In this document: positions 55,372 to 64,000 of the stretch, one piece after another
How positions within the stretch are numbered: position 1 is the first letter of the stretch
Layout of the letters: every line of letters starts with the position of its first letter
Source of the DNA: a phage
NCBI GenBank assembly: GCA_028030915.1
Contig: GCA_028030915.1_4867.1
Direction: 5' to 3' (one strand)
DNA length: 64,000 bases
Translations under genes and position numbers: made by a program
The notes under the pieces: generated by a model
Told to the model about the DNA's origin: nothing
Seen by the model: only the letters and a program-made list of their open reading frames with translations
The model's database searches: none

Positions 55372-55899
55372 TTAAACGAATCCGTCCAGTTCACCGTTGG
55401 TGGTGCTCAGGTCAGTTTTAACGATTGGCTGCGTTACAGTATAAACTGCAAGGCTGGCAGGTTGGTATTTAATGTGGCCTTCTTTCACCATAACAGTGAT
55501 GATTTTCTCACCACTGTCGCCGTCCTCGCGTGAAATGGTGAGTTCAGACAATGCAAACGCATCTTCCGTTTTACCGGCGGCAATTAGATCTGCGTTGACA
55601 AAAGCAAGCACTTCTTCATCGGTATCCCATTCTGCCTGGTCAGCGGTAACTGCTTTCGCACCGATGATGTTCAATGAATCGAGGCGGGTGTAATGCAGCT
55701 CTTTCTCGCCAGTAAAGTTAGCGGATTCCGCGGTGGCAGTGATGGTGAGTTTGGAGTTGCGAGTGTCTCCAGAATCTGCTGGTGAATAGTCAGCAACAGC
55801 GCCGAATGTAACGTCAGCAGTAGTTAACGGACTAGACAGTCCGCTGTTTGCAGCATTAAACAGCGCGACGAGTTGGTCTTTTGCAGAGATGACTGCCAT
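55372..55899 (-). CDS. hypothetical protein (175 aa), Thr/Ala-rich, possibly virion-associated
   Basis: ORF in track. Confidence 0.45.
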   Translation of the reverse strand: MAVISAKDQLVALFNAANSGLSSPLTTADVTFGAVADYSPADSGDTRNSKLTITATAESANFTGEKELHYTRLDSLNIIGAKAVTADQAEWDTDEEVLAFVNADLIAAGKTEDAFALSELTISREDGDSGEKIITVMVKEGHIKYQPASLAVYTVTQPIVKTDLSTTNGELDGFV

Positions 55900-56022: not shown

Positions 56023-56514
56023 ATGAAACGTCTATTTATCGTATTCGCGATTATAAACCTGTTGGCCGGTTGTGTTCAGTCGCCAAGCAACATAGGACAA
56101 TTTAGCGCCACACCAGTAAAGAATCACGACTTGGTGATTTATACATGCACAGGGACGCAGGAGAAGTTTGTAGACTACCGTCCGGTACTGGACAACCTAC
56201 AAATGATGCCGCGGTCAGTAACAGTAATGGATGTGGGTGCAAACTGGGTAGCAGCGTGGGACGGTGGCAAACTAGAGTCACCGATGATGTTTAAAGATAC
56301 AATTGGCAAAATCGACGGGAATGTTAATACCACCACAGGTGAGCGTTATTACCGTATTAATAAAACCGTAAACGATAGCCCCACTTACTCTTTTTCGGAT
56401 GTGAACCCGTATACCGGCGAAGGTAAAGGGATGACATTCTTTCGCTGCAGCAGCGGGTTTATCGGTGAAGTTCCTACTCCGATTACGATTGTTCCGTTAG
56501 AAGAAAATAAATAA
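56023..56514 (+). CDS. putative lipoprotein (163 aa), lipobox LLAGC
   Basis: N-terminal MKRLFIVFAIINLLAGC; own terminator downstream. Confidence 0.55.
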   Translation: MKRLFIVFAIINLLAGCVQSPSNIGQFSATPVKNHDLVIYTCTGTQEKFVDYRPVLDNLQMMPRSVTVMDVGANWVAAWDGGKLESPMMFKDTIGKIDGNVNTTTGERYYRINKTVNDSPTYSFSDVNPYTGEGKGMTFFRCSSGFIGEVPTPITIVPLEENK

Positions 56515-56517
56515 TGC

Positions 56518-56560
56518 TTACCCACTCCCGTAAGGGGAGTGGGTAAGGGCTTTATTTACC
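56518..56560 (+). terminator. intrinsic terminator (CTTACCCACTCCC-GTAAG-GGGAGTGGGTAAG, then T-run)
   Basis: 13-bp inverted repeat after the lipoprotein gene. Confidence 0.6.
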
Positions 56561-56639: not shown

Positions 56640-57155
56640 TTAGATTTTAACTAGCTTGCTCCAATCGATGGGTTGTTGCTTAACCACTTTAACGGTACCA
56701 CGTGTCGGTGACCAGAAGGTGATATCAGGCTGGTTGCGTACGTCAACATGCAGCCAGGTAATATCGCACTCGATAAAGTGAATAAACGGAAACTCGTTAG
56801 GGTTCGCGGCAATATAGTCGTGTACTTTCTGCAACGGAGTATCAAGCATTGTTGCATCAAACGCATTACCGAATTTATGCATACTGCCTGATTCGGCGTA
56901 CAGTTTGTTTGCACGAGTTTGCCAATCGCCACCCTTTGGTTTCTCTTGATTAATAAAGAACTGCAGGGTACGCAGACTACGCTGTTGCTGGGAACTGGTT
57001 AAAATCACCATCCGCCCAAAACGATTACGAATCTGTTGGAGCGAGATTAGCAGTAACGGATTAAGGAAACGAATAGCACCTTCACCGTATTTCGCGATGT
57101 ACTCCTGCGGCATCAACTCTTTTAACGCGAAGTTGGCAGGATTCGGATGAAACAT
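56640..57155 (-). CDS. peptidase M15-like (zinc D-Ala-D-Ala carboxypeptidase/endopeptidase fold) cell-wall hydrolase
   Basis: SMHKFGNAFD (S-x-H-x-x-G-x-A-x-D) and downstream WLHVDV (H-x-D) match the M15 zinc-binding signature. Confidence 0.55.
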   Translation of the reverse strand: MFHPNPANFALKELMPQEYIAKYGEGAIRFLNPLLLISLQQIRNRFGRMVILTSSQQQRSLRTLQFFINQEKPKGGDWQTRANKLYAESGSMHKFGNAFDATMLDTPLQKVHDYIAANPNEFPFIHFIECDITWLHVDVRNQPDITFWSPTRGTVKVVKQQPIDWSKLVKI

Positions 57156-57164
57156 TTTCTCTCC

Positions 57165-57806
57165 TTAAGGGGTAGTCAGGAACGCACGTTTGATATTCAA
57201 ATACTGCACGTTTACCGGTTGCCCATTAGTAATGTCAACACGTTCGTGTTCAGGAATCGCTAACGTACGCGACGTTCTAAAGAACAGGTAGTTGCGATTA
57301 TAGGACAACGTCTTTTCTACCGGCCGGCTATAAACCACCTTAGAGTTATCGTCTACATAGGACGGCCAACCAAACTCGTGAACGGCATGGTAGAAGGACT
57401 TACGAATAAAGGTGTCAACGCCTAATGCCTCCATGATACGTAAGAACATCAGGTCAGCGAAAGTTTTGTCACATGCACGAGATAGATTACCTTCGACAGT
57501 GTCAGGGTAAAAGCCTACAGATGAACGTTTCTGGTAAAACAAATCATGCACACAAGCGGCAGCAGCCCAAGGCCCATCCGGATGCAGGATAGGACGTAAC
57601 GCTTCTGGAATGCTTGCCAGGTCCGTCACAAATCCTTTCGGTACCGTTACCCATAACGGGGTATCCGGATGCACACCTGCTAATGCTACCATCGCATCCA
57701 TTCCGGTCTGTTCACGATAGAGGCTGCGCAACGTAAACTCGAAATGGAAATCATCCGTGAGGATAAACCACGGCTTCTCTAACAACTTATACTTAAGTGC
57801 TTCCAT
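57165..57806 (-). CDS. DUF1353-family protein (213 aa)
   Basis: VTVPKGFVTDLASIPEALRP...AAACVHDLFY matches the DUF1353 core pattern (P-x-GF-x-TD-x-ASIP ... HD). Confidence 0.5.
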   Translation of the reverse strand: MEALKYKLLEKPWFILTDDFHFEFTLRSLYREQTGMDAMVALAGVHPDTPLWVTVPKGFVTDLASIPEALRPILHPDGPWAAAACVHDLFYQKRSSVGFYPDTVEGNLSRACDKTFADLMFLRIMEALGVDTFIRKSFYHAVHEFGWPSYVDDNSKVVYSRPVEKTLSYNRNYLFFRTSRTLAIPEHERVDITNGQPVNVQYLNIKRAFLTTP

Positions 57807-58094: not shown

Positions 58095-58712
58095 TCATTT
58101 GCACATCCCCAACTTAGCCACGTAGTCTGGCATTTCCTGATAGACGCGGCCATACCAGCCGTAAGTAAACTCTTCGTTATCCTCACGCCCTTCACTGATT
58201 TCCGTGTAGTACGCAACCTGATGACAGGTTAAAGCGAACATCAGTCGATTCAGGCCCTCTTCCCCACGGGCTTTGATGAAGCCTTCTAACGCTGTTAACG
58301 TACGTGGCCCGATACCACCATCGGCATCGATATCATCGTATAGTTTACCCTGACGGTTTAATACGTTCAGAATACGTTGCAGGGACTTGATACAGTTACC
58401 GCGTCCTGCGTTAATGCCGAAATCAAACATTCGGTCAGCTAGCAGGACATTCATTTTCATAATCTGGTCTAAACGCATCCGTTGCCACCAGAGTTTGTTG
58501 TAGATGTCTAACGCGGTTTCTAGGCTCAGGTCACGCATATCCCCTTTATAGCCATATTCACGCGCAGTGAGTTCAGTGACACCACGGTTCGTTGCTTTAC
58601 CCAAATCTTTCGGGTTATTAACGTAACCGGCTTCGATGTTTACTTTGGCACGAATAATGCCCTCTTTACTCCAACGATCGACCACGATAACCTCCTGCGT
58701 TGATAGGGTCAT
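58095..58712 (-). CDS. endolysin-like muramidase (GH108-like N-terminal domain plus peptidoglycan-binding domain)
   Basis: EAGYVNNPKDLGKATNRGVT matches the GH108 signature; C-terminal DADGGIGPRTLTAL is PG-binding-like; start set at the Met just after the upstream hairpin. Confidence 0.6.
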   Translation of the reverse strand: MTLSTQEVIVVDRWSKEGIIRAKVNIEAGYVNNPKDLGKATNRGVTELTAREYGYKGDMRDLSLETALDIYNKLWWQRMRLDQIMKMNVLLADRMFDFGINAGRGNCIKSLQRILNVLNRQGKLYDDIDADGGIGPRTLTALEGFIKARGEEGLNRLMFALTCHQVAYYTEISEGREDNEEFTYGWYGRVYQEMPDYVAKLGMCK

Positions 58713-58746
58713 AAAAAGAAAGCCTCTTCCCCGTGGGGAAGAGGGC
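58713..58746 (-). terminator. intrinsic terminator hairpin (CCTCTTCC...GGAAGAGG) with A-run on the plus strand
   Basis: Inverted repeat immediately downstream of the 58791..60968 gene and upstream of the endolysin start. Confidence 0.4.
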
Positions 58747-58790
58747 ATGGGTTATTCTCAGGCTTTAACCCCGTCAAGTTCCTCGTTAAA

Positions 58791-60968
58791 TTATGATAAC
58801 GATTTCTTTGGCCGCTCCCACGGTTTAGGGGCGGATTTGGTATACGGATTACATTCCATCATCTTGCCGAGATACGCATCGTAATACACGAAGCGATCGA
58901 CATAGAACTTCTCCACCGGTGCACTACTGGTAGCCGATTTCACCCGGTTGCGTTCCACAGCGAGGTTAATCGTCCCGGTAGGCGCGGGTTTTAGCGTGAA
59001 CATCACCGCACGGTTGTAACGCCAAGTGTCGTGCACAATATCAAACTCCGATACACTGTGTGCCATGATACCAAACAATGTGGTGCTCGGTAAATTGGCT
59101 ACAGCATCACCGTATGGTGTTCCCACCAAACCGCCGGGTATGTTTTGCTTTTTGAACAGCGTACCTGAAATAATCGTACCTAAGAACTCCACAACTACAG
59201 GCTTGGTTGGGTCGGTGACTTTATCTATCCCATCCGCACTGGCCAGTCGATTGGCATCTAAAACTGCGAGGTAGTCGAGGAACTCTTGGTACTCGTCGGT
59301 AACATTCGGTTTCACCGTTCCGACGGATACCCAGTTGACGATACTTTTATTCCCACCGACAGCTTCGCCTGCCATCCCAGGGCGAGTCCATGACATCCCG
59401 TCTTCACGACCGTAGACATAGACTGGCGAGCCGGTAGCCGGGGTGTTCCATTGCTCGAACGCTGTATATCGTCCCGGCTGGCCCCAATCCCCACCCGGAC
59501 CGCCATAGTAGCGACTCTGGTAGCCGGTAAATTGCGCGACGACTAACTGGGTAGCACCGCCTTTGTCACGGGACCCAGCTAAGCCGTTACGGTTATTGGT
59601 GCCGCTGGGCACCGCCGCGCCTGGCCCGAGAGGCGCACCACCAGCTCCACCGATCTTGGTGGTGCTAAACGCATAGTAGTCGCCCCCACCCCCACCTCCG
59701 GCGATGGTGCCGTAGTTTTCGATGGTGACTTTGCCACGGAAGGCATCGGTAATGTGGATTGCGTCAGCTCCGTCTGCTGATGTGTTCGCAGGCAGAGAAT
59801 AGACCATACCCGAACCACCACGACCAAGAATGGTTCCCCGGTTAACGAAGTTCCAAACCACCTCGCCAATTTGCGGCAATTCGTCGATAACGAACGTCGG
59901 TTTCAGGTTGCTGTCGCGATAAACGAAAGCCCCTGCATCCACGGTCACGTTAACAAACAAACGCCCGCACGCCGCATGGTTGGTCAACGTCGTGGCCCAG
60001 TAGCTGTCCGAAACTTGCGACGTAGTTGTGTAGTTCAGGTTAAGGGTTTGCTCGTTATCTTGATAGCGTGCCACATTCAACGTGGCACTGCCCATGACTT
60101 TGTACGAACCCTCCACGGGTGCCAATTGCACTTGTCTTGGCCACTCGCCTGCCAAGTTCTCTACAGGAGCAATTTCGTTTACATCAAAAACACTCCGAAT
60201 GCCGAGTGTCTCGATGGCCAGAGCATCGTGCAGGCTACCGGTGAAATCATCCGGGACGTATGTGGTTTTGCCTGCATATGTCTCGAGTTTGTTACGTGAA
60301 AAGAACACATACTTCGTTCCAAACATCCCGCTCCCCGGTCTAGCGGTCAAAGCCACGACGCTGTTATACGCAGAGGTTTGGCCTATATCCTCCGGGGACA
60401 TCGGGGCGCTGACATCGACTTTATCAAGATCCACGATCCGTTTGGCTGCATTAGAGTAGAAGTTAATCCACTGCTGTTTATTCGCAGCCTTTAACGTGAG
60501 AATGATATTGGTAACAGTGTAGACGGTGTTGATATCCACGTCGCCGTTTATCACATCTAGCGTTTGGCTGCCGTACCAGACAAGACTTGTCTGTTTCGCC
60601 TGGAACGTGATGCGCGCAGCATTGTTTGTCCAAGTGATAGGCAGGTCTTCAAAGTCGTCGGTTAAAAAGGTAATCCCCAGTAAAGTGTCTAAATGCGGCA
60701 ACAGTTCGTGAATGGATGCACAAGTGGGAATGGCATCCAACTTAACCTTAGCGAAATAATCAGCAATATTTTGCTTCGTGACTTGGGCCGTAATTTGACC
60801 GTAATTTGAATACCCCGGACCCCCTGTCAGTGTGACGTCTAGGGTTTTTTCGTCACGATGCGCCACGGACACCAGGCGTACGTTAGCGGGGTCTACTGCT
60901 TTGGCGACCGCGTTTTTACGGTTGAGCGACCGAATCACGGTCGCCACTAAATCAGGAGTGTAGGACAT
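58791..60968 (-). CDS. tail fiber/receptor-binding-like protein (725 aa) with Gly-rich segment
   Basis: Gly-rich IAGGGGGGDYY...GGAGGAPLGPG; C-terminal motif PYTKSAPKPW shared with the next gene. Confidence 0.5.
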   Translation of the reverse strand: MSYTPDLVATVIRSLNRKNAVAKAVDPANVRLVSVAHRDEKTLDVTLTGGPGYSNYGQITAQVTKQNIADYFAKVKLDAIPTCASIHELLPHLDTLLGITFLTDDFEDLPITWTNNAARITFQAKQTSLVWYGSQTLDVINGDVDINTVYTVTNIILTLKAANKQQWINFYSNAAKRIVDLDKVDVSAPMSPEDIGQTSAYNSVVALTARPGSGMFGTKYVFFSRNKLETYAGKTTYVPDDFTGSLHDALAIETLGIRSVFDVNEIAPVENLAGEWPRQVQLAPVEGSYKVMGSATLNVARYQDNEQTLNLNYTTTSQVSDSYWATTLTNHAACGRLFVNVTVDAGAFVYRDSNLKPTFVIDELPQIGEVVWNFVNRGTILGRGGSGMVYSLPANTSADGADAIHITDAFRGKVTIENYGTIAGGGGGGDYYAFSTTKIGGAGGAPLGPGAAVPSGTNNRNGLAGSRDKGGATQLVVAQFTGYQSRYYGGPGGDWGQPGRYTAFEQWNTPATGSPVYVYGREDGMSWTRPGMAGEAVGGNKSIVNWVSVGTVKPNVTDEYQEFLDYLAVLDANRLASADGIDKVTDPTKPVVVEFLGTIISGTLFKKQNIPGGLVGTPYGDAVANLPSTTLFGIMAHSVSEFDIVHDTWRYNRAVMFTLKPAPTGTINLAVERNRVKSATSSAPVEKFYVDRFVYYDAYLGKMMECNPYTKSAPKPWERPKKSLS

Positions 60969-60982
60969 GGTGACACCTTAGT

Positions 60983-62302
60983 CTATAGCGGTGGATACCA
61001 AGGGACCGGGGCGGTTTTGCTATATGGACTGTAGACCATATAGCCGCCTTTGCTTGGGTCGTAATAGATGAAATAGTTACAGTAATTCGAGTAGAGGCTC
61101 GTCAATTGTTTGGATTGGTATCCGTTACGGTATAGTCCCTGGTAAGTAATAGCCGATGTCGTGGTGGTGTAAGCAGTGTGGTACAGTACCCGACGCCGGT
61201 TAGCAATACTTTCTTGGAACATCTCTTCGGTCGGAAACGCGTGTTGCATCAGCCGTCGAATACTCCCGGTACAGTATCGAGTGCCATACGGGGAACCCGT
61301 TAAATCATCCATTGTTTCAGGCGCTTCCGCCCGAGTCAACACGTACTCGTTTTGATACAACGTGACGCTCATCGAATTTGAGCTGGTTTCCCGGAACCTC
61401 ATGTAACGCGCATAACGTTCGACGTCCTCTTCCTGCGCCAAATAGGCCACGTTATTTTTCGGACCAAAGTGCAAGAAGAACGGACGGCGGAGATTACCCA
61501 TATCCTCAGGTGGCGTCAACTTCACGCAGTAATTGTACTCCCCACGCATATCAGGGTCTAAGCCTGGGTTGTTATTGCGTGTAGCGACATACCCATAGAG
61601 GTCATACGGGTTATCGGTAGCAGCATTACTGATGGTGAACGGGATGCCAGACCATGCCGACAGCGCCGCGATAAACTGGGTCATGTACGAGTTACTGTTT
61701 AGTCGCAGCGGGGTACCCATTGGAATATTGATTATCTGTTGGGTGTACATGCTCCAGTCGAGTCGATAGACCGTGCTGTAAACATCCATGGGTTCCCAAG
61801 CCCCGGTTTCGGTGGTGTGGTACAAGTCGGCAAAGCTGGGCTCTTCACGAATAAAGCTAATAGGAATGTGACCCGTGAATGCGGGGTTATCCGATTTAAT
61901 CGCCACCGTCCGATCGCCCGTTGCCACAGTGATCATTGCAAACTGGCTGTCGGGATACGTTAAATCGTCAGCAGTAAGCACCAACCCACATGCTGCGGAA
62001 ATCCGGTCGATGATGTCGCGGTAGACCGTCGCCCGATAAGGTACTTTAACCGGTACGCTGACGCCTTTAAAATACTGCGAAAGGTTTAAGCGGTCGTAGT
62101 AGATGTCCATCTTACCGCTGTAACCGCCACCCTGTAATCCGTTTACCACTATACGGCTGTTGCGGCCATCGCGCAAGGCATTGGTTAAAGGACCTTGTAA
62201 TAACGCCACGTTGGTTGCGTTGAGTGGTTTCTTGAGCTGCGGGTTATCACGATTAATCTGATCCCAAACCAGCTGCATGACAGGTTTGTTATAGTTGATC
62301 AT
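60983..62302 (-). CDS. fiber-like structural protein (439 aa), paralogous C-terminus
   Basis: C-terminal YSPYSKTAPVPWYPPL resembles PYTKSAPKPWERP of the downstream protein. Confidence 0.5.
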   Translation of the reverse strand: MINYNKPVMQLVWDQINRDNPQLKKPLNATNVALLQGPLTNALRDGRNSRIVVNGLQGGGYSGKMDIYYDRLNLSQYFKGVSVPVKVPYRATVYRDIIDRISAACGLVLTADDLTYPDSQFAMITVATGDRTVAIKSDNPAFTGHIPISFIREEPSFADLYHTTETGAWEPMDVYSTVYRLDWSMYTQQIINIPMGTPLRLNSNSYMTQFIAALSAWSGIPFTISNAATDNPYDLYGYVATRNNNPGLDPDMRGEYNYCVKLTPPEDMGNLRRPFFLHFGPKNNVAYLAQEEDVERYARYMRFRETSSNSMSVTLYQNEYVLTRAEAPETMDDLTGSPYGTRYCTGSIRRLMQHAFPTEEMFQESIANRRRVLYHTAYTTTTSAITYQGLYRNGYQSKQLTSLYSNYCNYFIYYDPSKGGYMVYSPYSKTAPVPWYPPL

Positions 62303-62310
62303 TGCAACGT

Positions 62311-62347
62311 CCTAAAAAAAGAAAATAGGCCCTGAAGGGCCTATTTT
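62311..62347 (-). terminator. intrinsic terminator (ATAGGCCC-TGAA-GGGCCTAT) flanked by A-run and T-run
   Basis: Perfect inverted repeat between the 62481 and 60983 genes. Confidence 0.5.
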
Positions 62348-62480
62348 TAGCTGCTATGGTGAAGTACGCTATCCCTTTAACTCCAGCTGATTCGACCTGC
62401 GTGTTGGGGATTATCCCGCTGAATGAGCCGACACAACAGCTCAAGTGCAGTGGATGAGTAAAACCCCATATTAGCTCCTG

Positions 62481-63383
62481 TTAGCTAAGAACCAATTCGA
62501 TAACGTGGACTACCGACGCGCTATCGGTCGAATAGGTATACGATGGTGAGTCTGGTGAGTTGCTGCGATAGTACCAGGCGTTGTAGATGTCACGACCGTT
62601 GGCAAACAATGTTGCGCTTGAATCGGTTGGACTACCGCCGGAGCGCATCGGTAAGTCGCCAAAACGTCTTACGACGCCCGCGTACCGGAACAAGCTTGCG
62701 AACGTGTTGTGCCACTCGCCGTCTTGAAAATAACCACCGCTGCTTAGGTAGGTGCTGTGCCCATAACTGTAGTCTCCGAGTCGAGGCAAGCGTACCACAT
62801 ACTCGTAACCGTCTTTATTAAATGTCCGACGCTGGTTAGTGGTAGTGACGCCCCCTGGCGGGAAACCGTAGTCATCTGTTCCCCAGGCCAGACCTTGCCG
62901 GTATTGTTCTTCCCACGTCGTCCCTAAACGGGTCACCGTGTCAGGAATGAACAGAATGCGTCCTTTGAAAACGAATTTATGGAACAATGTTGGAGCTTGG
63001 TTCCAGGCATTAAAGCCAATTAAACCATTCAGCTCGGCATGGTTAAGAATAAATTCTTCGTTTGTCAGTGTGCCAAAGTAGCCACGATGCCAATCGCCAC
63101 GAATAAGTTCCTGTGGGCCGGGCCCTGTCATTGGAAAGTCGCCCTGTACAATCGGCAGCCCCATAACCTTTTCAGTGCCCTTTACCGCCACGATGCGATA
63201 TTGATACGTTTTATACGCCTCGGTGGTCGTGTCCTCGTACGTCGTTGTGTTACCTGGTAGTGTTACAATAGGTTCCCCCGGTGCCACTGGGTTAACACTT
63301 TGTCTAGGGTTGTCGTAACGATAGATTTCAATGGAATCTAAAGTCTGACCTGGCTGTTGTTTCCAGTTTAAGATAATCGACAT
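62481..63383 (-). CDS. structural protein with N-terminal fibronectin-III-like domain (300 aa)
   Basis: N-terminal beta-rich pattern IILNWKQQPG...IEIYRYDNP...TYQYRIVAV; C-terminus VIELV shared with the next gene. Confidence 0.45.
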   Translation of the reverse strand: MSIILNWKQQPGQTLDSIEIYRYDNPRQSVNPVAPGEPIVTLPGNTTTYEDTTTEAYKTYQYRIVAVKGTEKVMGLPIVQGDFPMTGPGPQELIRGDWHRGYFGTLTNEEFILNHAELNGLIGFNAWNQAPTLFHKFVFKGRILFIPDTVTRLGTTWEEQYRQGLAWGTDDYGFPPGGVTTTNQRRTFNKDGYEYVVRLPRLGDYSYGHSTYLSSGGYFQDGEWHNTFASLFRYAGVVRRFGDLPMRSGGSPTDSSATLFANGRDIYNAWYYRSNSPDSPSYTYSTDSASVVHVIELVLS

Positions 63384-63386
63384 GTT

Positions 63387-63989
63387 TTACTCCACTAACT
63401 CGATAACGAATGCGTACAAACCGACCTTCTCAGCACTATCAACTAACGTAACTTGGGAGAGGTTACGTTTCGACGTATTGGTTATGCTTGAATCGATAGG
63501 CGCAGACCCGCGAACCAGAACTAATCCCGATTCAGGATCACGTTCTTGGCACAAGAAACCTTTGCCTTGGTAAGCGCTACCGCTCCCATAAATGGACGCT
63601 GGACTAATATTAGTCCAGTTAGGGAGCATTTGTTTGTTAGGGATACATTCTCCGAACGGATAAACAAAATCGTTATATTCGCAGCGACCATATTCCAAGT
63701 CATCATGGTCTGCGTTTCGCAACGATTCATCCAATGTCATTACTGTCGGTTCGTCCCCGTCGGTTAAACCGCGCAGCAATCGCATCCGATAGGTGTCGCC
63801 TTGCCATTCAAACAACCCACTCTGGTCAACACCTGCCAAATCCCCACGTCCGTTATCAGGACCAAATCCATCAACACCGTACACAAGCCCCGCGTTATAA
63901 ATGTCATTCCACGAGTAAAGTGTAGAGTTAAATCGTCCGCCGCTGTTCATCATGTAGTAAACTTTACCATGACGATAAAACTTGTTCAT
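63387..63989 (-). CDS. structural protein paralog (200 aa), C-terminal VIELV
   Basis: ORF in track; shares the C-terminal motif and internal similarity with the 62481 protein. Confidence 0.4.
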   Translation of the reverse strand: MNKFYRHGKVYYMMNSGGRFNSTLYSWNDIYNAGLVYGVDGFGPDNGRGDLAGVDQSGLFEWQGDTYRMRLLRGLTDGDEPTVMTLDESLRNADHDDLEYGRCEYNDFVYPFGECIPNKQMLPNWTNISPASIYGSGSAYQGKGFLCQERDPESGLVLVRGSAPIDSSITNTSKRNLSQVTLVDSAEKVGLYAFVIELVE

Positions 63990-64000
63990 GATTAGCGTGC

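Follow-up and report, generated by a model that had tools for sequence, protein, structure and literature searches.

Modular virion-protein genes of an SPN3US-like Seoulvirus and the shared C-terminal domains of their products

Known relatives of the locus

The closest described relatives of the genes considered here are those of the Salmonella jumbo phage SPN3US, a Seoulvirus. Seoulvirus belongs to the Chimalliviridae, the family to which DUF7941 proteins are restricted. The SPN3US proteins gp152, gp153, gp154 and gp155 were all detected in the virion by mass spectrometry (MS) (PMC5694885 Table S1; PMC10052503 Table S2), and Paralog family B was classed by the Thomas laboratory as head proteins (PMC5694885). 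Eight SPN3US proteins are processed by the prohead protease, gp152-155 not being among them, and the virion proteins of highest abundance include gp160 and gp141, which carry the label 'Head ejection?' (PMC5694885). In Goslar, the purified DUF7941 protein gp22 forms filaments in vitro, and head-to-tail assembly of DUF7941 proteins with an anchor on the baseplate was proposed (10.64898/2026.04.21.720040). The phiKZ atlas places the DUF7941 protein gp127 on the outer baseplate.

Identity of the four genes

The window analysed is a phage DNA stretch of 64,000 nucleotides (GenBank assembly GCA_028030915.1, contig GCA_028030915.1_4867.1), and the locus under study occupies positions 58,791 to 63,989; all features given below are on the minus strand. 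Across all 5199 bases the locus is 97.5-98.2% identical to the DNA of SPN3US and its relatives (megablast, 100% coverage), and the annotation tables of Seoulvirus genomes show gene-for-gene synteny with SPN3US_0152-0155. The window is from an SPN3US-like Seoulvirus (about 98% DNA identity), and its four open reading frames are the orthologues of gp155 (725 aa), gp154 (439 aa), gp153 (300 aa) and gp152. With virion MS published for their near-identical SPN3US counterparts and a filament preprint for the DUF7941 family, they are already known: the gp152-gp155 family consists of particle proteins proposed to form host-recognition filaments, and the flagged locus is a known cluster of virion-protein genes, not a new system. 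We probably deal with the array of SPN3US 'Paralog family B' at its 3' end, i.e. tandem virion-protein genes assembled from a few shuffled modules. The earlier note had described the proteins as fiber-like structural paralogs. Paralogy is confirmed by alignments and domain matches, and the structural assignment by the presence of all four proteins in SPN3US virions. The term 'fiber-like' fits insofar as the set includes members of the DUF7941 filament family and a Gp38 adhesin, and fails in the sense of classical trimeric tail fibres (see below).

gp155 and gp154 are homologous at both ends

The gp155 orthologue (58791..60968; 97.5-98% DNA identity to Seoulvirus genomes) consists, in this order, of a DUF7941 N-terminal domain, a middle region without assignment, a Gp38-like adhesin domain, and a C-terminal module of the PHROG 6409 type. 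The N-terminal domain (about aa 1-155; 60504..60968) matches Pfam PF25613 with E 3.4e-23 (83 bits versus a cut-off of 27). Its model, of low pLDDT (44-69), finds as best Foldseek match 9xqd_0 (E 3.4e-3, prob 0.99, TM 0.30), a chain of 150 residues from the entry on the outer peripheral baseplate of phiKZ. The Gly-rich stretch remarked on previously is the Gp38-type adhesin domain (aa 373-553; 59310..59852; Pfam PF05268, E 5.7e-18, 66 bits versus a cut-off of 25). It covers positions 61-214 of the 218 profile positions, with the N-terminal part (1-60) unmatched, and contains 22% Gly with GRGGSG, GGGGGG, GGAGG and GGPGG motifs, candidates for a polyglycine-II sandwich, that align with the gp38 proteins of S16 (6f45_D) and PP01 (9v85), both found by phmmer at E about 0.005. 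The AF2 model of gp155 has a pLDDT of about 23 in this domain and is reliable only for about aa 150-350 and 560-720; for the underlying alignment, C-terminal fragments alone of gp154 orthologues were added, MAFFT having scattered the N-terminal ones. The C-terminal module (aa 557-725; 58794..59300; phrog_6409, E 4e-7) is modelled with block-mean pLDDT mostly 65-92 (about 80) over aa 560-720, apart from a low-confidence segment at 597-609, and ends with the motif TKSAPKPW (58818-58841). The last residues are PWERPKKSLS here versus PWVRPKISLS in SPN3US. Downstream of the gene lies a terminator-like hairpin followed by a T-run (58723..58744; 9-bp stem, 6 GC pairs).

The gp154 orthologue (439 aa; 60983..62302) belongs to Paralog family B and matches Pfam DUF7941 with E 5.2e-26 (92 bits versus a cut-off of 27). 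Within it, a DUF7941-type region (aa 1-287; phrog_1037, E 4e-66) is followed by a PHROG-6409 module (aa 308-439; phrog_6409 over aa 308-436, E 1.3e-18) that ends with SKTAPVPW (60998-61021). Immediately upstream of the gene is another terminator-like hairpin with T-run (62322..62347; 11-bp stem).

These two endings, and the VIELV ending discussed below, had been presented as C-terminal tags on otherwise different proteins, possibly serving assembly or chaperone recognition. The motifs are real, each occurring exactly twice in the six frames, and together with shuffle tests these counts rule out chance similarity. The proteins themselves are not otherwise different: in gp154 and gp155 the DUF7941 N-termini are homologous (shuffle test, z 8.3), and so are at least the C-terminal 110 aa, even once the motif is taken out (z 5.7; BLASTP E 2e-7). 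Columns conserved across gp154 and gp155 orthologues are G616, P618, H637, R673, N674, F693, Y695, Y696, D697, P708 and W717, of which P708 and W717 are all that is conserved within the PW motif. A profile of the C-terminal module retrieved 439 clusters from public data, mostly proteins of 155-180 aa with the module nearly always at the extreme C-terminus. The PW motif, of the form NP..(S/T)xP.PW, is the end of a PHROG 6409 module of about 110-130 aa, not a detachable signal. PW and VIELV each form the conserved terminus of a homologous domain that is larger, and a role of the two as assembly or chaperone tags finds no support. Stand-alone copies of the module also occur as two tandem PHROG-6409 genes next to a DNA polymerase gene in Erwinia phage RAY, a context that is uninformative.

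gp152 and gp153 start with FN3 and share domain X

The gp153 orthologue (62481..63383) combines a fibronectin type III (FN3) domain, a seven-strand beta-sandwich superposable on FN3 domains (about aa 1-85), with a second domain that we call domain X (about aa 86-300). The reported '200-aa protein' is the C-terminal part of gp152 (204 codons, 63387..64000). It is an artefact of the window end, since the ATG at 63989 has no preceding stop and the frame stays open to base 64000, and full-length SPN3US gp152 has 332 aa. SPN3US gp152 also begins with an FN3-like domain, and its alignment with gp153 starts at residue 1 (27% identity over 216 aa, E 7e-8), so that the earlier observation of FN3 in one of the pair was correct for gp153 and incomplete. 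The internal similarity reported for the pair likewise stands, the bodies being homologous (z 6.5); their last 30 aa with VIELV, taken alone, are not significantly similar (z 1.8). In gp153, VIELV (62490-62504) belongs to the last strand of domain X (..VIELVLS; E294-297), in a model with pLDDT 93 in which the strand has a block mean of 94; in gp152 it is at 63393-63407. The domain that bears it is common to gp152, gp153 and gp151, and a version reading ..PVLELVD.. lies internally in gp145, gp148 and gp151. Variable loops were found in gp153.

Pfam gave no DUF7941 match in gp153 or gp152, which are not members of that family, and domain X has no match among solved structures by Foldseek or sequence profile. 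The annotation 'glycosyl hydrolase' given to gp153/gp152 in Proteus phage 7 was considered and rejected: the matches of the fold and profile searches are all to FN3 modules, those of pectate lyases and glucanases, which gives no support for a catalytic domain, and in some records such labels seem to derive solely from the FN3 module.

The neighbouring gp151 is composed of DUF7941, domain X, a Pro-rich tail and the peptide NGELDGF, its middle being paralogous to gp152/gp153. E. coli phage EC001 lacks the gp151-153 triplet, and these proteins are therefore dispensable; Lh1B is likewise without the triplet. Shuffling of the same modules is seen in two metagenomic proteins, of 946 aa (two DUF7941, GP38, PHROG 6409 and domain X) and 1343 aa (two DUF7941, GP38, PHROG 6409 and Laminin_G).

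NGELDGF, a portable tail peptide

The genuinely tag-like portable C-terminal peptide of the array is NGELDGF, and the idea of a C-terminal tag therefore has merit for a motif other than those named in the earlier note. It is found, for instance, in the 175-aa DUF7941 protein orthologous to SPN3US gp160 (55372..55899; Pfam DUF7941 E 3.5e-11), which lies outside the region first described and ends with ..TTNGELDGFV. The paralog tails of the array also include a 20-aa peptide, ..KTDLSTTNGELDGF. Right after the TAA stop of gp155, a decayed remnant continues in frame (58758..58790), reading FNEELDGVKA and then a stop; SPN3US and EC001 carry the same remnant, and more distant gp155 orthologues read through to ..NGELDGF... 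Judged from these reading frames, gp155 has evidently lost its NGELDGF tail by a stop codon. Ten NGELDGF tails, combined into an HMM to look for homology with the linker inside full-length DUF7941 paralogs, gave no significant internal match.

Between gp154 and gp153 lies a 30-codon relic of a DUF7941 N-terminus, MGFYSSTALELLCRLIQRDNPQHAGRISWS followed by a stop (62377..62469), with 18 of 30 residues identical to the N-terminus of gp151 and an identical sequence in SPN3US. A paralog unit was probably lost here, with the relic left as its scar. Two genes downstream of the locus is a gene for a non-virion DUF1353 protein labelled 'tail assembly chaperone' in PHROGs. A scan for sigma-70 promoters found 5 sites versus 9.1 in shuffled sequences; with fewer sites than in the shuffles, and SPN3US-type phages using their own RNA polymerases, the scan is uninformative.

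The DUF1353 gene and the tag-like NGELDGF are what could be adduced for classical tail-fibre paralogs with short C-terminal chaperone or assembly tags, possibly cleaved. We hold this very improbable: both named motifs are part of folded modules that are conserved, orthologues keep no more of the PW motif than P708 and W717, and the proteins stay when the tail is lost (PMC10052503 Table S2). On the earlier note's question of whether the C-terminal motif is retained or cleaved in virions, the published data report no prohead protease processing of the four proteins, and the gel slices of gp152-155 fit full length, although loss of a few terminal residues would still fit (PMC5694885 Table S1). 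Nor did Pfam find a recognisable C-terminal chaperone domain like the intramolecular one in endosialidase-type fibres.

Location in the particle and proposed assembly

In tailless 255(am107) particles, the normalised ratios of gp152-155 relative to whole virions are 0.89-1.67, versus values down to 0.004-0.013 for true tail proteins (PMC10052503 Table S2). The four proteins are not classical trimeric tail fibres, and their retention in tailless particles means that filaments anchored only on the baseplate do not fit.

The best overall reading, which we consider probable, is a modular array of DUF7941 filament proteins with gp155 as adhesin cap and gp151-153 as an accessory set; host recognition is probably the role of these genes. 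From AlphaFold predictions and the in-vitro filaments of one member (10.64898/2026.04.21.720040), the DUF7941 N-domain would receive an adjacent subunit's linker or tail to give flexible head-to-tail filaments. Having a Gp38-type polyglycine adhesin domain, gp155 is the likely receptor-binding subunit, and because its NGELDGF tail is lost it would act as the chain-end subunit on which the adhesin is displayed. As accessory subunits bearing fast-evolving surface loops, gp152 and gp153 probably join gp151. Several observations go against this reading: gp152-155 are not lost with the tail in SPN3US, unlike what a baseplate-only anchor would give, and internal or capsid-bound sites are possible; the Gp38 region is modelled with very low pLDDT and leaves the N-terminal stretch of the Pfam profile unmatched; DUF7941 is missing from gp152 and gp153; and EC001 does without the gp151-153 triplet.

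The retention data lend themselves as well to strict head proteins, internal (and possibly ejected) or associated with the capsid shell, without a role in adsorption. Their abundance in CsCl-purified tailless particles is equal or higher, in triplicate (PMC10052503 Table S2; PMC5694885), and the very abundant gp160 and gp141 were tentatively linked with head ejection (PMC5694885). We judge this unlikely, as FN3 and Gp38-adhesin domains typically belong to proteins that are external and face the host, none of the four is cut by the prohead protease (PMC5694885), phiKZ gp127 is on the outer baseplate, Goslar gp22 forms filaments (10.64898/2026.04.21.720040), and related fusion proteins add a lectin-type domain; moreover, filaments could co-purify with heads or be anchored on head or neck.

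The latter placement, external filaments or decorations on capsid or neck instead of the baseplate, would make the head a host-capture surface with a Gp38-like adhesin tip, and reconciles the head association in MS with the adhesin, FN3 and filament evidence. Against it, none of the published structures consulted has fibres of this kind on Seoulvirus heads, the one DUF7941 protein with a structural placement sits on the phiKZ baseplate, and free filaments may co-purify; we regard it as possible, with considerable doubt. A more specific version, which we put forward only as a speculation of low probability, has DUF7941 filaments on head or neck (instead of or besides the baseplate) capped by the gp155 adhesin, with NGELDGF as subunit docking peptide and the stop codon making gp155 an obligate chain terminator. 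If true, phages would have here a novel route to modular filaments for host capture.

The favoured filament array faces a tension between the quantitative MS of SPN3US, which keeps the proteins on tailless heads, and the baseplate anchor of the Goslar preprint (10.64898/2026.04.21.720040). The array also has at least one portable C-terminal peptide, NGELDGF, lost by its adhesin-bearing member. Both matters concern the way in which jumbo phages find hosts, and also the engineering of host range in Seoulvirus phages that are used against Salmonella.

Comparison with described systems

SPN3US gp152-155 are the same genes in the same order (97.5% DNA identity), encode four virion proteins, and differ by few substitutions; gp155 was left out of family B by the original authors, yet has a DUF7941 N-domain. 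The chimallivirus DUF7941 proteins (Goslar gp22, gp23, the cargo-bearing gp86, gp92 and gp161; phiKZ gp126 and gp127) share the N-terminal DUF7941 followed by host-recognition-type domains, the many paralogs per genome and the virion association. They differ in that the cargo of gp155, a Gp38-like adhesin plus PHROG-6409, is not described in the Goslar preprint, and in that tailless heads retain the SPN3US orthologues whereas a baseplate anchor was proposed for the family (10.64898/2026.04.21.720040).

With the Gp38 adhesins of T2, T6, S16 and PP01 (PF05268; PDB 6F45, 9V85), the Gly-rich motif domain of gp155 aligns in their polyglycine receptor-binding region. Those adhesins are free proteins of about 26 kDa that dock on the gp37 tip, whereas the gp155 domain is embedded in a 725-aa DUF7941 protein with another domain after it and, matching profile positions 61-214 only, is not a free-standing Gp38 with an N-terminal gp37-docking domain. 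With FN3/Ig-bearing phage surface proteins (T4 Hoc; compare the pectate lyases PelI and Pel3, which have FN3 modules), gp152 and gp153 share the FN3 fold, which stands at their beginning, and they differ by domain X. Finally, the PHROG 6409 proteins of about 165 aa in PCH45, RAY, Ea35-70, PhiEaH1 and CR5 have the same module of about 110 aa, which contains RNGY and F(I/V)Y(Y/W)D and closes with NP....P..(W/Y/F); the module stands alone in those jumbo phages, whereas here large DUF7941 proteins carry it as a C-terminal fusion.

Gene Identity and Virion Evidence

The minus-strand region 58791-63989, described in an earlier note as a set of fiber-like paralogs with conserved C-terminal motifs, is 96 to 98% identical over its whole 5.2 kb in 19 Seoulvirus records (megablast, phage genomes; 97.5% for Salmonella phage SPN3US); Seoulvirus belongs to the family Chimalliviridae. 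Synteny with SPN3US identifies the ORFs, all on the minus strand, as orthologues of gp155 (58791-60968; 725 aa), gp154 (60983-62302; 439 aa), gp153 (62481-63383; 300 aa), and gp152 (63387-63989). The length of 200 aa ascribed to the last arises only because the window ends there, the frame being open to base 64000; gp152 of SPN3US counts 332 aa, with 132 more N-terminal residues. Records LR535901-LR535913 and LR535917 (SPFM1, 5-10, 12, 14, 15, 20) match the region in about 40 short pieces (ca. 48% coverage) and their annotated proteins look scrambled, e.g. with C-terminal motifs at the N-terminus, which suggests sequence or assembly corruption.

All four are already known as virion-protein genes: in SPN3US gp152-155 were found in purified virions at 50-86% coverage, and peak in gel slices consistent with full length (PMC5694885 Table S1); none of them belongs to the eight proteins that the prohead protease cleaves (PMC5694885). 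In tailless 255(am107) particles, compared with wild type in triplicate, their normalised ratios are 1.67, 1.45, 1.22, and 0.89, while the tail proteins gp167-171 fall to 0.004-0.013 (PMC10052503 Table S2). Because of this retention the authors call them head proteins (PMC10052503), and a minority alternative is that they are internal head proteins. Most likely, gp152-155 serve host recognition through modular, flexible filaments.

C-terminal Motifs and Domain Architecture

In the six frames of the window, [ST]K[ST]AP.PW (the PW motif) and VIELV each occur exactly twice, the former at the ends of gp155 and gp154 and the latter at those of gp153 and gp152, where the earlier note had placed them. 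Compared over their last 40 residues, gp155 and gp154 score 85 versus 23 +/- 4.5 in shuffles (z 13.7), the ca. 105 residues preceding the motif remain related with the motif removed (z 5.7), BLASTP aligns 109 C-terminal residues at 28% identity (E 2e-7), and relatedness extends to the first 160 residues (z 8.3); these are thus not otherwise different proteins with conserved ends. The five-residue VIELV match by itself is not significant (z 1.8). The internal similarity noted for this second pair is genuine: the protein bodies are homologous (z 6.5), and the alignment of full-length gp152 with gp153 begins at residue 1 (E 7e-8).

Pfam gives DUF7941 83 bits at the N-terminus of gp155 and 92 bits at that of gp154; it also recognises the domain in gp145, gp148, gp151, and gp160, and along the whole of gp142-144. 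The Gly-rich stretch seen in gp155 (22% Gly, aa 373-553) corresponds to the Gp38 tail-fibre adhesin domain (PF05268, E 5.7e-18). Both C-termini are assigned to phrog_6409 (PHROGs), a module of ca. 110 residues wherein orthologue alignments reveal conserved G(T/S)PYG, QHxxP, RNGY, F(I/V)YYD, NP, and W positions; within the PW motif itself, conservation is limited to P708 and W717. In the AF2 model of gp155 block-mean pLDDT is mostly 65-92 over aa 560-720 and about 80 over the motif; the best Foldseek match of this model, whose N-domain is of low confidence, is a 150-residue chain of a phiKZ outer baseplate entry. A profile of the module searched against 1.84 billion representative proteins matched 439 clusters (206 at E <= 1e-10), mostly proteins of 155-180 aa in which the module stops within a few residues of the C-terminus, with some tandem duplications or C-termini of 400-950-aa proteins; all share the terminal pattern NP....P..(W/Y/F). 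The small module-only proteins are phrog_6409, of unknown function; among isolated phages they are encoded by jumbo phages, for example PCH45, RAY, Ea35-70, PhiEaH1, and CR5. In Erwinia phage RAY (locus L004, 8479-9504) two stand-alone tandem genes of ca. 168 aa lie beside a DNA polymerase gene, distant from annotated structural genes. Given its wide distribution and pLDDT, the module is folded and the PW motif is its end, not a free tag.

No Pfam match was obtained for gp152 and gp153; both are phrog_1062 and have a central region in common with gp151 (phrog_3589). In the structure model VIELV is the last beta-strand (E294-297; block mean pLDDT 94) of domain X, the part of gp153 C-terminal to FN3 (ca. 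aa 86-300), and the same motif is internal in gp145, gp148, and gp151 (..PVLELVD.., ..WPILEMFD.., and ..WPVLEEIN..), where a proline-rich tail of ca. 100 residues follows domain X. Variation among close orthologues concentrates in residues 200-290, directly before the conserved strand, a pattern typical of exposed, fast-evolving surfaces. The label "glycosyl hydrolase" on 300- and 332-aa orthologues in two GenBank records (e.g. Proteus phage 7, locus L002, 11691-13595) was rejected: the only support found was the FN3 module, which pectate lyases and glucanases also have and which seems to be the source of such labels.

The observations of the earlier note are confirmed, and its interpretation supported, in part. 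Each motif ends a folded domain, and for neither is the idea of an assembly or chaperone tag supported, but that idea may hold for NGELDGF. This peptide, which ends gp145, gp148, gp151, and gp160 despite their different architectures and lengths, is a real tag in the array. More distant gp155 orthologues run on beyond ..PWVRP.. to ..NGELDGF..; directly after the TAA stop of gp155 a decayed remnant, FNEELDGVKA*, follows in frame (58758-58790, minus strand). Stop and remnant are alike in the window, SPN3US, and EC001, the stop of EC001 being even earlier. Kinship of the tag to the internal DUF7941 linker was looked for and not demonstrated.

Array Organisation and Turnover

Upstream of the window, SPN3US carries three triplets (gp145-147, gp148-150, and gp151-153), each composed of a ca. 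480-aa protein (whose DUF7941 and domain X precede a tail with NGELDGF at its end), a ca. 332-aa FN3-X protein ending ..ELVE, and a ca. 300-aa FN3-X protein ending ..ELVL(P/S). Escherichia coli phage vB_EcoM_EC001 (locus L005, 10603-17372) is without the gp151-153 triplet and has two instead of three; by megablast coverage the same applies to Lh1B and SPLA3. That two of these Seoulvirus genomes belong to phages of E. coli hints at a connection with host range. Between gp153 and gp154 lies a 30-codon ORF (62377-62469, minus strand), preceded by AGGAG, identical in SPN3US, and matching the gp151 N-terminus at 18 of 30 positions; it appears to be what is left of a fourth paralog unit. In metagenomic relatives, two DUF7941 domains are joined to GP38 and phrog_6409 in one protein, with domain X added in one case and a lectin-type (Laminin_G) domain in another.

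Strong terminator-like hairpins with T-runs flank the gp154-gp155 pair on the minus strand (62322-62347 and 58723-58744). As the latter overlaps the start of a 217-aa ORF (58748), this endolysin probably starts downstream at MTLSTQEV (about 58712), which is also its annotated start in SPN3US. The ORF (58095-58748, minus strand; a weak M15-peptidase/phrog_894 endolysin-like protein) and a GH108 and PG_binding_3 endolysin (56640-57155, minus strand) sit either side of a DUF1353 gene (SPN3US gp157; 57165-57806, minus strand), two genes downstream of the adhesin-bearing gp155. Its product, of a "tail assembly chaperone" family (PHROGs) and scored non-virion in 2023 mass spectrometry (PMC10052503), is a candidate folding helper. 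A hairpin with a perfect 13-bp stem (56517-56547), terminator-like on either strand, separates the convergent genes 56023-56514 (plus) and 56640-57155 (minus).

Proposed Function and Comparison with Known Systems

In such filaments the DUF7941 N-domains would link the subunits; gp155 would supply a Gp38-like adhesin and, being without the tail tag, would occupy the chain end; gp154 may display the C-terminal module also found on gp155; and gp152 and gp153 would be FN3-bearing accessory subunits, probably partnering gp151. The Gp38 region of gp155 can be aligned to the gp38 adhesins of S16 and PP01, whose structures are solved. A 2026 preprint on phage Goslar (10.64898/2026.04.21.720040) describes DUF7941 as a chimallivirus-specific family, some members of which carry carbohydrate-binding, hydrolase, or LRR domains; it predicts head-to-tail oligomers, reports that purified gp22 forms filaments, and proposes a "fibre cloud" anchored at the peripheral baseplate, on the strength of phiKZ gp127, whose place in the outer baseplate is at the end of the gp139 band. 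The SPN3US proteomics, however, conflicts with anchoring of DUF7941 filaments at the baseplate only.
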